The notes beneath the pieces were generated by a model. The model saw only the letters and a list, made by a program, of their open reading frames with translations. It was not told the origin of the DNA and did not search any database. Source: an uncultured archaeon (GTDB lineage Archaea; Asgardarchaeota; Lokiarchaeia; Sigyniarchaeales; SOKP01). Taken from it: a DNA stretch of 64,000 nucleotides. The position numbers and the translations under genes were made by a program. The stretch spans positions 192,001 to 256,000 of the forward strand of contig CAZALK010000003.1 of NCBI GenBank assembly GCA_964486045.1, given 5' to 3'. Shown in pieces: positions 42,861 through 49,514 of this stretch. Each line of letters begins with the position of its first letter. The stretch's first letter is position 1.

Positions 42861-43064
42861 TCCCTGTGTAAATATACTCTGACTTGGTGTTAACCATAGA
42901 CATTGAACCTTTTCTCGTTTTAGTTTTTAATTTAGATTATCCTCTCCATGGTTTTTTCCATAGCGTTTTAGGATCTAACCCGTTTTTAAGCTGATTTTAG
43001 AGCCGAATATTATATTTTCGCTGAAATATTAAAAAAAGTAATAAAAGGTTATATTCGCATTAGG

Positions 43065-43301
43065 TTATTCCACAGAGCTGGGCACAGGGTCGGTGTATGT
43101 GGAATCACAGTGGGCACATACTTTATATCCTTTTGTAAAGTCCAACTCTTCTATTTTCCCACAGTATGGGCATTTTGGCATATTCCGTCTTTTTCGTTCC
43201 TTTCGTTTATTTAACCATTGATTTAGAAAGCGTTGAACAACGATTACAATAACTCCTGAAGTAATCCCTGAAATCATCCCTGTTATTATAGCTTCGAGCA
43301 T
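43065..43301 (-). CDS. small TM + zinc-ribbon protein
   Basis: N-terminal TM helix, CPYC...CAHC. Confidence 0.65.
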   Translation of the reverse strand: MLEAIITGMISGITSGVIVIVVQRFLNQWLNKRKERKRRNMPKCPYCGKIEELDFTKGYKVCAHCDSTYTDPVPSSVE

Positions 43302-43348
43302 AATAATTATCAAATTTCATTTCATACTAATAAGGTTAACTATTCATT

Positions 43349-43598
43349 TGCCACCACTTGTGGTTAATTAAAAAAAGAAGAAAAATATTATTTTTTATTA
43401 AAAATCCAATTCAATCTCTATATTCTTCTTTTATTAAAGGCACACCATTAATATTATCAATACCTATCATATCATTTACTTTTTTAACAATAATCTCTTC
43501 AATCTTTTTTATTTGTTCTTCAGTAAAGATTTCACTCATCTTTCTTTCTCACCCCCTTAATTGTTTCTGCCACCGCTGGTGGTTAATTAAAAAAAGAA
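43349..43598. repeat. pair of 31-bp direct repeats (43349-43379, 43568-43598)
   Basis: tgccacc(a/g)ct(t/g)gtggttaattaaaaaaagaa, 29/31 identical. Confidence 0.85.
43411..43539 (-). CDS. 42-aa hypothetical protein
   Basis: MSEIFTEEQIKKIEEIIVKKVNDMIGIDNINGVPLIKEEYRD, preceded by SD-like GGGGGTGA. Confidence 0.6.
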   Translation of the reverse strand: MSEIFTEEQIKKIEEIIVKKVNDMIGIDNINGVPLIKEEYRD

Positions 43599-43877
43599 AG
43601 AAATTAAGGTTTATTTTAGGAATAAACAATCGAGCGTTTATCCCCTTAAAAGCCTACGATTTGACGATTTGGAGACCACACACAAGAAAATAATAATCCA
43701 AATCCTCAAGACCGAATTATAATCATAAGTTCACTACCTAATGCACTTATTATTAGATGGACGAAGTAAAACGGGGATCGGCTTTTAATCTTAGTTCCCA
43801 ATGTTCTTCCTTATTAAAATATATAATAGATTTTGAAAAGTTTTAATGCTCATAATATCTTATTTTGGTTGTTAAAA

Positions 43878-45380
43878 CTATTCTTTTTTATTATCTAAAA
43901 TTATTGGTTTACATCCTTTTCGTTTTGATCCGGCTATTCGTTCCAACAGGGCTAATCCGGGTTTAATTTCTTTTAGATTTTTGGATTCAATTAAACCAGC
44001 TTTAACTGCATCATTAAAGATTTTATCACCTTGCTTAGATCGGGTTATAACGGAAGACCATCCACTCGGAGACCCTATTGATCCCACAGAAATGTCAGCA
44101 TAATCTGCTGTAAGGTCTTCACAAAATCCGCAATTTGGTCTAGCATATGATTTTACCTCTTTAAGAGGGACTTTTTCGACTTCTCCAGATTTCAAGGATA
44201 TAATAAACTTGCCACCACTTATGTCCATTTTTGTTATTTCGTTAAGTTTTTTCTCGAATTTTTCTCCTGATAATTTAAAAACATTTTCAAACGAAAAAGC
44301 TTCCATACAAAATAGTCCAATTGTGTATTTGATATTTTTAAAGAATGGCAATCCCCCTGGATAAAAACTTCCTTTCTGAAGAGCAGTTATCATACATGGA
44401 GTACCAACAACAGCGATATTTTCATATTTTTTTGTTTTACTAATAATTGCTAAAGTTGACGCATTTGCATATTTAGTTCCACCCGTTTCATATAAATCTT
44501 TTACATCATCAACAATAACTGGTTCTGGTCTCCATAAATCATCAGCATGTTTCACAGCTACTATGGCATCTACTAACTTTTTTTTTAGTAAAAATTCGAG
44601 TAGAGCAGTGACTATTCCTCCGTCTTGTCGGACCTTTTTAATCTCTTCATTAGTAGTTGATGCTGAATAAACATTTTTGTATCCATTTATCTTAGCTGAA
44701 AATGTCAATGACTTATCGACTTTGCTAATACTTAGACCTGCTTGTGCAATTGAAAACGATTTACTGCACACGGAATAACATATTCCACATTTCATACAAA
44801 TTTCGTCATCAATTTCAAGCGTATCTGCTGTAACTGTTATGGCATCTACTGGACATACAGATGAACACCAACCACAATTACAACATACTCCGGAATCGAA
44901 CACAAGGGAAACAGCGTCAAAAAAATTCTCAATAAAATCATCTGCTAAAGGTTTCAACTGATATCTATAAAAGTAACTTTTGACTTCAACTTCTTTTTCT
45001 ACTCCCTTTACTTTCTTTGTGATTTTTTTTACCTTTACTTCAATATGTTCATCTACATACCCTTGCTCTTTTAAATAAATAACATCACGAATTACATTAG
45101 CAGCGGGAAATTCTTCAATTTTTTGTGCGATTTCTTCTAAGAATAACGGCTCTAAACCCTTTAATCTCTCCAAAATTAATTTACGTTCCGTCTCAGCGTC
45201 AATCATTGAGTCCAGAATTTCATAGAACTCATTTTCATCATATTTTCCAATATTAAGAATCTCGCCCTTTGCTTCAAAAAAAGCTCGAACTTGAAAATTT
45301 GCTGATCCTTGATATGTAGCTTCCATTAACTCCTTTGGAGATATTTTGGTAAATAATTTGTTATTTACAGTTTCGACCAT
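43878..45380 (-). CDS. frhB: FrhB-family protein with N-terminal helical/winged-helix extension and ferredoxin
   Basis: CCNCGWCSSVCP, CMKCGICYSVC, QDGGIVT, VGTPC, GLFCME, CGFCED...ADISVG. Confidence 0.9.
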   Translation of the reverse strand: MVETVNNKLFTKISPKELMEATYQGSANFQVRAFFEAKGEILNIGKYDENEFYEILDSMIDAETERKLILERLKGLEPLFLEEIAQKIEEFPAANVIRDVIYLKEQGYVDEHIEVKVKKITKKVKGVEKEVEVKSYFYRYQLKPLADDFIENFFDAVSLVFDSGVCCNCGWCSSVCPVDAITVTADTLEIDDEICMKCGICYSVCSKSFSIAQAGLSISKVDKSLTFSAKINGYKNVYSASTTNEEIKKVRQDGGIVTALLEFLLKKKLVDAIVAVKHADDLWRPEPVIVDDVKDLYETGGTKYANASTLAIISKTKKYENIAVVGTPCMITALQKGSFYPGGLPFFKNIKYTIGLFCMEAFSFENVFKLSGEKFEKKLNEITKMDISGGKFIISLKSGEVEKVPLKEVKSYARPNCGFCEDLTADYADISVGSIGSPSGWSSVITRSKQGDKIFNDAVKAGLIESKNLKEIKPGLALLERIAGSKRKGCKPIILDNKKE

Positions 45381-45445
45381 TCTTTCTTCAATTTCCTATT
45401 AATTTTAATATATTTTTAATACTATTTTTATAAAAACTTGTAAGA

Positions 45446-45513
45446 ACCCCTTCCTTTGCAGGGCTAGTCATCTTATAACTAAAATTTTTTTATAAGATTC
45501 ATTCAGCAGGGGT
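45446..45513 (-). promoter_or_regulatory. eukaryote-type SECIS element (core 45463-45507) within a putative three-way junction
   Basis: mRNA: ACCCCU GCUG A AUGA A UCUUAUAA [AAAAAUUUUAG] UUAUAAGA UGAC UAGC CCU[GCAA]AGG A AGGGGU. Shows helix I, AUGA/GA core, perfect 8-bp helix II and an A-rich loop. Confidence 0.85.
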
Positions 45514-45960
45514 AATTAATGATTCTTCTTTCTTTTTTGAAATTTTTACTCCTAATTTTTTTATCGGATTGGGACCTTCTCTTTCTACCTTTTCGTATGC
45601 ATCTTCTACGCTTTTCACGAATTTCTCACTTTCAGCTCCGCTTAACCAGTACATATTTACTCTCTGATGTCCAAAGCCTCTAGAAGCTAATATCCTATTT
45701 GCTAAGTCTACATGTGTTTGTGCGGAAAAGTTTCCTTGTTTGTATTGGCATTCATTGGGGCGTCATCCTACTACCATGACTCCATCTGCTCCCGACAAAA
45801 TGGTATAGAGAATATGCTTTAAATCGACTCTTCCTGTACATCGCACTTTGATTATTTTCACCGAAGTGGTATATTTCAACCGAGAAACACCTGCTAAGTC
45901 GGCAGCACTATACCCTCATTTCAAGCAAGCAAATGCAATTATCTGGTAGTTATTTTCCAT
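45499..45960 (-). CDS. mvhD: selenoprotein MvhD/VhuD (Sec15, Sec66), 153 aa
   Basis: MENNYQIIAFACLK-U-GYSAADLAGVSR...VRCTGRVD...GVMVVG-U-RPNECQY. UGAs at 45916-45918 and 45763-45765 align with Cys in the paralog at 20232-20681. Confidence 0.93.
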
Positions 45961-45964
45961 TTGT

Positions 45965-47941
45965 TTATACACCTCCTAAAAGACCAGTAATTTCAGCGAA
46001 TAATTGATAGTCTCGATAATATAATATATCGATCGCTTGAGTAGGACAACACGTAGCGCAAATACCGCAGCCATCACAGTTTATAGTATCTACAAAAGCT
46101 CCAATTTCCTTATCGATTTTTATAGCATTCTTTGGGCAAGCCTTTTCACAACGTCTACATGAAATACAATATTCACTTGCTACTTGAGCAGTAATCAGTT
46201 CAATATCTACTTCTCCAGGTGATGTTAATTCAGCGACTTTACTTGCTGCCGCTCTAGCTTGTGATACTGAATATGCTATATTTTTCGGTCCTTGTGCGAA
46301 GCCAGCAATATATATCCCTTTTGTTTTAGTTTCTTGAGGCATTAAACCAAAGTGAGATTCAGTAAGGAAACCATATATATTAGTATCAAGGTTCAATACT
46401 TTGGCAATTTGGTTCGTACCTTTTGAAGGGAGTGCTGCTGAGGAGAGTATTACTAAGTCCGCATCAATTTTAATGATTTCGTCAGTTAACGATGAATACA
46501 CTCGAAGATTAACATTTTTTGTTTCAGGATCTTCAGAAATCTCCCCAACTTTACCGCGAATCATCCTAATACCAGAATCTTTGGCACGTTGGTAATATTC
46601 TTCAAAACCTTTTTCACCAGCCCTGATGTCAATGTAACAGATAGTAATATTCGCGTCAGGAAATTCTTCTAACAATAATTTTCCATTCTTAAGCGATAGC
46701 ATACAGCAAACCCCGCTACAGTAAGTTCTTTCTGTAGTTCTACTCCCTACGCATTGTATGAATACGATTTCTTTCGGTTTTTTTTTATCATCAGATAGTC
46801 TTCTTACATGCCCTTCTAATGGTCCGTTCGGAGCTAGCATTCGTTCTAATTGAACTTGAGTTATAACATTGTCAAATTCTCCGTATCCGTATTCCCCAAA
46901 TGGTTCATACATATCCCAACCAGTTGCGATTATGATTGAACCGACATCTAGATTAACTTCTTTTGGTAATTGACTAAAATCAATAGTACCTAATTCGCAA
47001 GCGTCTATACATGCGAAACACTCAACACAGGCATTTCTATTTATGTCATAGAGAAAGGGTACAGCTTGACCAAATGCTATATCAATTGCTTTTCGTGCTC
47101 CTAAATTTTCATCAAAGAAGTTTGAAGTATAGACAGGGCACACTTCTGAGCATGCACCACAACCATTACACTCATCCGTAACAAAGCGCGGTTTCATTTC
47201 TACTTTTACTCTATAATTACCGACATACCCTTCGACTTCCTTCACTTCACTATAACTTAAAATCTCAATATTCTCGTTTCTATTGACATTTAGCATCACA
47301 GGTCCGCATATTCAAATCGAACAATCATCCGTGGGAAATGTACGATCCAGTTGGGCCATCCGTCCCCCTATAGTGGTTTTGTTTTCCACAAGATAAACTT
47401 TTATGCCTTGATTCGCAAGATCTAGAGCCGCGTTCATCCCAGCAATCCCAGCTCCTACAATTAAAGAAGCCTTTGTAACTGGAACGGTTTTGACAGGTAT
47501 ATCTTCTAAGTTCTTTGCCCGTTCTATCCCGCTTTTTACCAAAATTTTTGCTTTCTCTAAAGCCTCTGAGTTATGTTTTGTACACCATGAAACATGTTCC
47601 CGTATATTTACCATTTGGAAGTAATAGGGACTTAGATCTGTCTTTTTAATCGTGCTTCGATAAATAGGTTCATGTGTGCGTGGTGTTCATGCAGCAGCGA
47701 CAATACGATTCAAGTTTTTCTCTTTGATATCTTCCATAATTTCATTCTGCGCAGCTTCAGTTCATAGAAAACCGTTCTTTTTTGATAATACTATTTCATC
47801 CCCTAAACTTTGAGCATAATCTACGAGCGCATTAACATCTATTTTGCTTTTAATGTTAACTCCTCACTCACAAGAATAAAATCCAATCCGTAGTTCTTCA
47901 GTTTCTTTATTTTCACTAGTTTCATTCCGTTGACTATTCAT
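45965..47941 (-). CDS. hdrA: selenoprotein HdrA with four Sec (U26, U60, U85, U210), 658 aa
   Basis: Single frame from ATG 47941 with UGA at 47864-66, 47762-64, 47687-89 and 47312-14. Each aligns with Cys in paralog 25923-29015. Joins ORFs 47312-47614 and 45965-47299. Confidence 0.93.
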
Positions 47942-48218
47942 TTTTTACACCTTTTTTAAATTTCCACCTCAATTATTGATTATCAATTTCAACCATAAGG
48001 TTGATTTTAATTTTAATTTTCAAAATTAAATCACTTCTAATTTAAATTTTATTGATTTTTAAAACTTTTAATCTTTTTGTTTATCAAATTAAACAAGATT
48101 TTGTGGATTGCTTACTTACTTAAACCATTTTTAATGGGATCGGTTTAAAATTTCGGAAAGCATGAGAAATTAGGATGATGAATGATCAATAAGTATAGTG
48201 CGAAAAAACTTTGTAAAT

Positions 48219-49514
48219 TTAAATACTTAGAATTTCTTTTATAAGAGAGATTATTGTTTTTGTATTGAAAACAGATGTTTCTGCTGTTTTAATAAATTCT
48301 TTTATTTGATCATGATAATGTTTTTCAAAATGATTAAGAAAGTAAACTAATCTCTCTTTTAAACTTTGATTAGCGGATTTAGACAAAAATAAAGCTAATT
48401 TTATAAATTTACCATATGTTGCATGGATGTATAAGCCTTTATAATTAATTTCTTCCATAGAAGTAGTGCCCCCTAGTTGCGACATAAAAGAATCCATAGC
48501 TGACAAAAATCCTGATATTAGCTCTTTATCAACAGGGTAGTCTTCGCTTGCATGAGATACCATGTTTACCCCTGATATTTTATCAATGATTAATAGGCTT
48601 CTGAAGATATCATTGAATTTTGGCTTAACAGCTATTGAATGCTCCTCGGCAAGTAAAATTTTGCTGGGAAGTAATTCATACATAGTATAAGATTTAGATT
48701 TGTAAGCTTCCTTTTCTTTAAAATAATAACTGGATATAGTAGTTAATCGGGATGGTGCTCGAATTGGTTCATGTGGTAATTTTTTAATATACTCATCTCG
48801 CAACCTTGTGTCATGATCTTTAGATTTTTTGCCTTTAGTTATACCATAAATTTTCTGATGAATAGGATCAACTACGTAAAACCAAGCACGTAATTTCTGC
48901 ATATCTGAAACCAATCTTTTAAATCCAATATTTCGAACACCCCTGGGAGTGGTAACAAAAACAGTCCATAGAACTATTTTTGAGGCTTCACTGATCTGAT
49001 AAAAAGTGTCTTTATAATTTTCTTCTGTCAGTTCCTCTCCAGTCCTTATAAATACACCTTCAGTTCTTAATAATGGTTTTTTCTTAATTAAATAAAGATC
49101 TATTAAAAAATCTTTGATATCTGATGCATTGTAGACAATTATTCCCCAATCCGCTCCCTGATCTGCAAATGCGTCAATTAATTCTTGTTTGGAGATAAAA
49201 TCAAATCGTGTGATGTAATCACTTAGTTTCTCATCTTTTGTGATAGTATCTCCAATGAATGTTAAAAAAGTAGAATATTTCATCTGGAGATCAGGACTAG
49301 TTTGATATTTCTTAAAAAGATGAATGGATATAAGATCAAGTAATTCTAATTTAGTTAATGACTCATCCTCTGGGGTTGGAATATTATTTGTTTCCATGAA
49401 ATCATAAATTTCCTTGAACCTACTTCTTACGATTAAACAGTTCAAACATAAAATACCAATTTTCCCTTCGTTTTCTTTTTGAATCGTTTCTAAAATTTCA
49501 GTTGAGGATGGCAA
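48219..49514 (-). CDS. hypothetical protein with C-terminal longin/roadblock-like domain
   Basis: C-terminal LLIIDKISGV...LISGFLSAMDSFMSQL, typical of Asgard longin-like domains. Confidence 0.7.
   Translation of the reverse strand: MPSSTEILETIQKENEGKIGILCLNCLIVRSRFKEIYDFMETNNIPTPEDESLTKLELLDLISIHLFKKYQTSPDLQMKYSTFLTFIGDTITKDEKLSDYITRFDFISKQELIDAFADQGADWGIIVYNASDIKDFLIDLYLIKKKPLLRTEGVFIRTGEELTEENYKDTFYQISEASKIVLWTVFVTTPRGVRNIGFKRLVSDMQKLRAWFYVVDPIHQKIYGITKGKKSKDHDTRLRDEYIKKLPHEPIRAPSRLTTISSYYFKEKEAYKSKSYTMYELLPSKILLAEEHSIAVKPKFNDIFRSLLIIDKISGVNMVSHASEDYPVDKELISGFLSAMDSFMSQLGGTTSMEEINYKGLYIHATYGKFIKLALFLSKSANQSLKERLVYFLNHFEKHYHDQIKEFIKTAETSVFNTKTIISLIKEILSI

Follow-up and report, generated by a model that had tools for sequence, protein, structure and literature searches.

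A lokiSECIS element on a covarying three-way junction, with the vhuD stop codon in its core, in an Asgard archaeon

Positions 45446 to 45513 on the minus strand of the window (the whole stretch of 64,000 nucleotides analysed here) hold an element that is a lokiSECIS, or Asgard type I eSECIS-like element, at the 3′ end of a bicistronic hdrA-vhuD mRNA. The three-way junction that this element forms with an outer helix (P1) and a small 3′ hairpin (P3) is general and not peculiar to vhuD: P1, a helix I with its G-C pair, and P3 recur with strong covariation. These results refine the description of a known family, that of the lokiSECIS / type I eSECIS-like elements. We consider it probable that the Sec signal is a kink-turn arm borne on the three-way junction and that the stop codon inside it is read by a release factor; as part of that whole explanation, the element would in all likelihood direct Sec insertion at the six UGAs that lie upstream of it.

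The element and its predicted fold

The text of Mariotti 2016 (PMC4989117) defines the lokiSECIS by an AUGA followed by a stem of 9 bp, by a loop of 11 nt with As at its beginning and AG as its last bases, and by a GA after the stem. In the window, the AUGA core (45502-45499, minus strand) stands just 5′ of the main stem and the GA of the tandem G.A core (45469-45468) just 3′ of it. The stem, helix II, is built from the 5′ arm AUCUUAUAA (45490-45498) and the 3′ arm UUAUAAGAU (45470-45478), covaries among orthologs, and is capped by the 11-nt apical loop AAAAAUUUUAG (45479-45489), which has an A-rich start and an AG end. An earlier, sequence-only reading of this DNA had recognised here the eukaryote-like SECIS layout reported for Lokiarchaeota, and every published defining feature is indeed present, including the A-rich loop that it described. 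Its perfect helix II is likewise there, but has a length of 9 bp rather than 8, since the flanking A and U are paired as well.

Below the core, helix I joins GCUG (45504-45507), the C stem of the kink-turn, to the strand C-UAGC (45463-45467). P1 pairs ACCCCU (45508-45513), which codes for Thr-Pro, with AGGGGU (45446-45451), and P3 is the hairpin CCU-GCAA-AGG (45453-45462), all on the minus strand. The letters that the sequence-only reading wrote out for 45446-45513 are all found at those positions, and the three-way junction as it was drawn is both the minimum free energy and the centroid structure of 45440-45520 (minus strand; RNAfold) at −19.9 kcal/mol, against −11.9 ± 2.7 kcal/mol for 200 dinucleotide shuffles (z = −3.0), of which one was equally good. 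A covariance model (CM) built from 59 vhuD elements scored the element at 98.7 bits (E 1e-21 in its own genome), and this was the single match to a lokiSECIS-type element in the whole window. An Rfam cmscan of 43000-49000 at E ≤ 10 returned no SECIS family (SECIS_1 to SECIS_5), which suggests an element that would work like a eukaryotic SECIS while standing outside those families. The matches that the scan did return, SNORA16 and TeloSII, were at chance level.

Helix I, the kink-turn and P3

The pair that lies just below the 3-nt bulge is made by the base two before AUGA and the base right after GA (the −1b:−1n pair). It was G-C in 78 and A-U in 11 of the 89 non-vhuD elements and unpaired in none of them, while in vhuD elements it was G-C in 70 cases and G-U in one; the next helix I pair covaries (AU 45, UA 11, GC 9). 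The two bases concerned in the window are G45504, the conserved −1b base, and C45467, which pair with each other in most relatives. The helix I proposed from the sequence, GCUG/UAGC, does form in the window fold and suits the closest relatives, but it proved to be a local register shifted by one, in which UAGC is paired and C45467 left bulged, and it was about 55% paired in orthologs.

The bulge is N-A-U (A-A-U in the window), and GA/GA is invariant. At sequence level the C stem, the 3-nt bulge and the tandem G.A/A.G pairs thus present the features of a kink-turn, and the putative turn resembles known ones (PMC4005666) in these three parts, in the canonical order of the tandem G.A and in its association with a three-way junction. 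A k-junction has its third helix inserted right at the k-turn, where it is coaxial with the C helix (Wang 2014, PMC4005666); here the junction falls 2-4 bp below the bulge, so the arrangement would be a k-turn adjacent to a junction and not a k-junction.

The GNRA tetraloop hairpin of the sequence-only reading is not conserved. P3 in most relatives is a CC-N-N/N-N-GG stem around a GCR triloop or a YGCRA pentaloop, and the CCU-GCAA-AGG of the window is a local version shifted by one base from this majority register. A strict GNRA tetraloop was found in none of 160 elements (best-hairpin parse), and the string G[CU]RA occurred in 62/71 vhuD and 50/89 other elements. The third P3 pair was UA in 30, UG in 17, AU in four and CG in three vhuD elements and CG in 29, UA in 24 and UG in 17 of the others; because the first CM had used the P3 register of the window, the counts were redone with the majority register. 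By eye, the apical loops showed no complement of GCRA with which the loop of P3 could form a kissing interaction.

Conservation and covariation of the three-way junction

The proposal that the outer helix ACCCCU/AGGGGU and the small hairpin close a junction held up, both being real, conserved and covarying across about 160 elements. Eight of the ten paralogous elements of the same genome folded unaided into an outer helix, a SECIS arm and a 3′ hairpin, and their outer helices differ (CUCCAAA/UUUGGAG, AACCGAA/UUCGGUU, AUGUGUU/AACACAU). Across 98 non-vhuD elements, P1 was 87% paired, every one of the six pairs occurred in four to six types, and the helix reached a covariation score of 0.77 against 0.24 for column shuffles, a value attained by 0/500 shuffles, and against 0.06-0.19 for a control in which the partners were slid by 1-3 columns; these figures are to be read with the tendency of CM-derived alignments to lean to the structure they were fitted to and with the inflation of shuffle statistics by kinship among the sequences. 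An alignment-free helix search recovered 90 distinct complementary P1 strand pairs. Among 71 vhuD orthologs, the variable P1 positions were solely the third codon positions of Thr and Pro, and these covary with the 3′ UTR strand (CG 43, UA 16 and UG 11; UA 37 and CG 20).

RNAalifold recovered P3 from a plain MAFFT alignment and, with RIBOSUM scoring, P1, helix II and P3 together in both the vhuD and the non-vhuD set. With default scoring it returned helix II and P3 and no P1, from the ungapped MAFFT alignment as well as from the CM alignment, since the variable linker ahead of the P1 3′ strand misaligns that strand. Thermodynamic support was moderate, with a mean z of about −2 per element for mononucleotide flank shuffles. 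The 5′-flank swap (−16.8 vs −14.9 kcal/mol) discriminated poorly, with 30% of swaps being equally good, because many paralogs carry similar CCGAA-type P1 strands.

Under lenient criteria, 40-50% of the flank shuffles still branched three ways somehow, as might be expected if the fold of the window were a chance by-product of GC-poor sequence around a simple hairpin SECIS. Against such an origin stand the compensatory changes by which P1, helix I and P3 stay paired over about 160 elements, the synonymous sites that are matched in the UTR, and the GC-rich strands of P1 and P3 within a genome of 31% GC, and we disfavour it as extremely improbable.

Covariation proves that pairing has been selected and does not prove its purpose, and P1 and P3 could be a structure of the mRNA 3′ end, serving exonuclease protection or aiding termination at a U tract, that merely encloses the SECIS. 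P1 does close the element, a run of four or more U follows 18-50 nt from the GA in 51 of the 71 vhuD elements, and in the window a U5 tract (45432-45436, minus strand), possibly an archaeal termination signal, comes 10 nt past P1. A U tract was near just 40 of the 89 non-vhuD elements, however, and the geometry is tight and constant, with junction linkers of 0-1 nt and a P3 that always begins 2-4 nt past the conserved GA-C. The CC/GG stem and the GCR loop are moreover kept across unrelated selenoprotein genes, where a generic stabiliser would need neither, and the arrangement apparently also surrounds the GAA_A-type stem of the Methanococcales vhuD SECIS. We think a 3′-end role unlikely and prefer to regard the junction as part of the Sec signal.

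In their text, figures apart, Mariotti 2016 (PMC4989117) mentions neither P1 nor a G-C-anchored helix I nor P3, and Huang 2024 (PMC11227280) describes no third helix and no junction; the words 'three-way' and 'hairpin' are absent there, and 'junction' occurs in one cited title alone. The accessible part of the supplementary material of Huang 2024 holds no SECIS structures, and a full-text literature search on SECIS and three-way junctions gave, among its titles and abstracts, none on Asgard SECIS.

The hdrA-vhuD gene pair and its neighbours

The first gene, hdrA (45965-47941, minus strand), contains four in-frame UGA (Sec) codons and stops at UAA, and 4 nt separate this UAA from the ATG of vhuD (45960) in the window. 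The vhuD/mvhD coding sequence (PF02662; 45499-45960, minus strand) has Sec codons at 15 and 66 and ends at the core UGA. The six in-frame UGAs upstream of the element are accordingly the four of hdrA and U15 and U66 of vhuD, at distances from the element of 263 nt to about 2.4 kb. U15 and U66 align with W (UGA under code 4/25) of database homologs at CxxC-type positions; the in-frame UGAs occupy Cys positions of homologs, and the single element 3′ of vhuD serves hdrA as well.

Public entries of vhuD homologs (P0002-P0121) have W at both Sec sites and a C-terminal ...EW[IFV]L, so TGA was evidently taken as W when the genes were predicted. Such calling mis-translates the Sec sites and reads through the core UGA as far as the UAA in the stem.

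Between the SECIS and an frhB-like ORF (43878-45380) lies a spacer of 65 nt (45381-45445, minus strand), which holds the U5 tract and then UAUAAAAAUA. The first might signal the termination of hdrA-vhuD, and the second might be a TATA-like box of the downstream gene.

The stop codon inside the AUGA core

With TGA read as U, the vhuD frame runs ...LITPAE-UGA(45501-45499)-AUC-UUA-UAA(45492-45490), that is, ...PAE-UGA-I-L-UAA, so that the UGA of the core is the earliest in-frame stop of vhuD and an in-frame UAA follows three codons on, within the 5′ arm of helix II. The residues T-P-A-E are coded by the P1 5′ strand and helix I, and about the first third of the conserved RNA, counted from its 5′ end, falls within coding sequence. 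This bears out the claim of the sequence-only reading that the core UGA is the in-frame terminal codon of the gene and that T-P-A-E is written into the 5′ arm. That reading did not recognise the overlap of stop and core as described, and it inferred that this UGA terminates because the ribosome must unwind the SECIS to reach it; the overlap and the blocking of recoding by proximity are both published. The Discussion of Mariotti 2016 (PMC4989117) describes a VhuU.1 whose AUGA doubles as the stop and argues that SECIS proximity blocks recoding; the same text places UGA stops close to or within the element and has HdrA never ending in UGA. The text of Huang 2024 (PMC11227280) has UGA stops often overlapping the AUGA motif. 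What is new here is that the core-UGA stop has been quantified for vhuD, the arrangement itself being already in the literature.

For this quantification, 59 distinct Asgard vhuD loci with their 3′ flank were assembled from genome and metagenome contigs, and these also supplied the elements for the CM. Exactly one core stood right behind vhuD in 59/59 of them. By the pattern used, no core was found in two Asgard-type loci (L042 and L043), nor was such a core found in about 95 bacterial or Methanococcales vhuD loci. The expectation that the stop stays inside the AUGA core was realised in 47/59 orthologs and failed in 12/59, which end at a UAG or UAA 4-18 nt upstream, mostly at the UAG of the helix I strand (...UAG-A-AUGA). 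Since all 59 stops fall within the 5′ half of the element, VhuD ends within a few residues of one common point whichever stop serves.

The hdrA-type upstream ORFs of the orthologous loci stop at TAA in 44 cases, at TAG in ten and at TGA in none (0/54), which enlarges the published no-UGA observation. The core UGA also serves as the stop in 15/89 non-vhuD elements, and no candidate Sec UGA comes closer to the core than about 80 nt upstream, the nearest ones being in small unverified ORFs. Stop positions and Sec UGA spacing fit a distance rule, as a correlation and not as a test.

When the core UGA occupies the A site, the 5′ half of the SECIS should, judging from the size of a ribosome footprint, be inside or behind the ribosome. 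This argues against a partial decoding of the core UGA as Sec, by which VhuD would end in ...PAE-Sec-Ile-Leu and its true stop would be the UAA three codons on. Two observations would suit such decoding: of the 47 orthologs whose frame runs as far as the core UGA, 39 have an in-frame UAA or UAG at +10, and the public gene calls with TGA=W all end in ...EW[IFV]L. The ...UAUAA stem is equally present, however, in the 12 orthologs that end earlier, at a UAG or UAA between −4 and −18, so the UAA comes with the stem sequence rather than having been selected as a back-up stop; those 12 do without the tail, and where there is a tail its residues vary just as the stem allows. We hold partial Sec decoding to be very unlikely and favour termination by a release factor at the core UGA.

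Sec machinery and further elements in the same genome

The genome contains a tRNA-Sec gene with anticodon tca (C15:137829-137921) and a gene for SepSecS (C15:139200-140357; 390 bits), 1.3 kb apart on the same contig, and its selD contains Sec. A PF01248 (L7Ae-family) search of the genome found just two genes, of about 128 aa and ribosomal size, and no larger SBP2-like protein.

An initial loose pattern gave 376 matches in the genome, mostly spurious, and a strict pattern was used instead. This strict pattern found ten such cores in the 5.18 Mb, to which the CM added three, for at least 13 elements. Nearly all of them lie directly 3′ of ORFs with in-frame UGA, and the ORFs ahead of them comprise selD, two Prx-like genes, three vhuD paralogs and several small ORFs. 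The vhuD paralogs at C7:190189 (L004) and C17:6547 (L007) each have a SECIS of their own; the core UGA is in frame in the former, and the latter stops at a UAA/UAG 22 nt upstream. Further elements stand behind small or unassigned ORFs at C35:3783, C3:142939, C25:39050 and C11:149404 (L009, L003, L008 and L005), among which are a hydrophobic ORF of about 78 aa that ends at the core UGA, one with ...GNUSC..., and one with two adjacent UGAs (HADUUADVM). These four may represent unassigned selenoprotein families. A locus of a genus relative (L224; G007:C17:9010-15632) has five SECIS in 5.5 kb, all on the same strand and each preceded by a small ORF with an in-frame UGA, which gives the impression of small selenoprotein genes arrayed in tandem.

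Distribution and likeness to Methanococcales elements

Searched with the CM, 15 genomes of the genus yielded 3-11 matches of full length apiece. Matches occurred in 25/25 sampled genomes of the family, as against 2/125 other genomes of the phylum. The two outliers, L287 (G065:C6:186385-186468) and L288 (G047:C1:826911-827002), belong to two other Asgard families, stand behind vhuD and have the same junction in a GC-rich form. In L287 a Glu-UGA is again in frame at the core, and in L288 the gene terminates in a tandem UAA-UAG that directly precedes A-AUGA.

Four vhuD 3′ UTRs of Methanococcales type (L066:1892-1990, L074:1893-1990, L122:1388-1475 and L140:1388-1475) were compared with these elements. 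All four have the branch order AUGA, GAA_A-type main stem, GA/AA-C and a hairpin of 5-7 bp, with hairpin strands that differ (CCCCU, CCUCCU, CCUCC and CCUUCU); the closing helix stands out clearly in L066 and L074 but is less distinct in L122 and L140. From these four sequences, compared without statistics, the Methanococcales vhuD SECIS apparently shares the branch order of the junction.

Discussion

The functional centre of the element would be the kink-turn, composed of helix I, the A-A-U bulge, and the tandem G.A/A.G pairs contributed by AUGA and GA. The 9-bp helix II and the 11-nt A-rich loop would cap it, and below helix I would come the junction with P3 and P1. These two helices may form a scaffold by which the kink is fixed, stabilised or presented to a binding protein, although this assignment is pure inference. 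When a ribosome arrives with the core UGA in its A site, P1 and helix I would already have been unwound and the 5′ arm of helix II would be in the channel. The SECIS would thus be absent at the moment of decoding, and a release factor would read the core UGA. The same reasoning would cover those orthologs, a minority, whose stop is the helix I UAG.

The coupling of ribosome traffic to Sec insertion that the sequence-only reading had suggested as a possibility would follow logically from the overlap. Translation extends through the core and the 5′ strands of P1 and helix I, so each ribosome completing vhuD would melt the sole SECIS of the operon. In an unlikely, distinctly speculative extension of this, the element would have to refold before Sec could be inserted by a ribosome waiting at any of the six UGAs upstream, and Sec efficiency in hdrA and vhuD would become tied to ribosome spacing, with the junction acting as a fast-refolding device. 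If true, there would be a feedback between translation flux and recoding, beyond the stop-versus-Sec discriminator that the sequence-only reading had envisaged.

The element agrees with the lokiSECIS of the Lokiarchaeota hdrA-vhuD (PMC4989117) in its core, 9-bp stem, 11-nt loop and GA, and also in that one element behind vhuD serves hdrA, with up to six UGAs over about 2 kb. Whereas the text of that paper gives core, stem and loop alone, the window element adds P1, the G-C-anchored helix I and P3. With the Asgard type I eSECIS-like elements as worded in the text of Huang 2024 (PMC11227280), it shares the GA_[G/A]A quartet, an upper stem within 7-15 bp and a loop within 8-20 nt. The lower stem and internal loop given there, with family-specific pairs such as UGG_CCA, match the helix I described here, but that text has no third helix, and the P3 region would sit outside or below its lower stem.

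In common with the eukaryotic SECIS (form 1), there are an AUGA/GA kink-turn core with helix I below and helix II above, unpaired As in the apical loop, placement at the 3′ end, a presumed effect over a distance and a lower limit to the spacing of UGA and SECIS. The window element differs in its shorter helix II (9 bp), its overlap with the coding sequence, and a three-way junction in place of a two-helix hairpin. The VhuD SECIS of Methanococcales and Methanopyrus is depicted in Mariotti 2016 (fig. 4B) as of the archaeal GAA_A type with AUGA...GAC. The Methanococcales elements share the AUGA before the main stem and the GA/AA-C after it, but have a GAA_A bulge and a GC-rich upper stem where the window element has a 9-bp stem and an A-rich loop.

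The stop within the core matters for annotation, since in public vhuD entries made with TGA=W the Sec sites are given as W and the protein gains a spurious EW[IFV]L tail. The lokiSECIS is a proposed bridge from archaeal to eukaryotic Sec decoding. If the junction is its true architecture, search models that consist of core, stem and loop only are incomplete, and what the archaeal SECIS-binding factor recognises may go beyond the kink-turn. The branch order common with the Methanococcales vhuD SECIS would, if confirmed, provide a structural character for the proposed descent of lokiSECIS from the archaeal VhuD SECIS.
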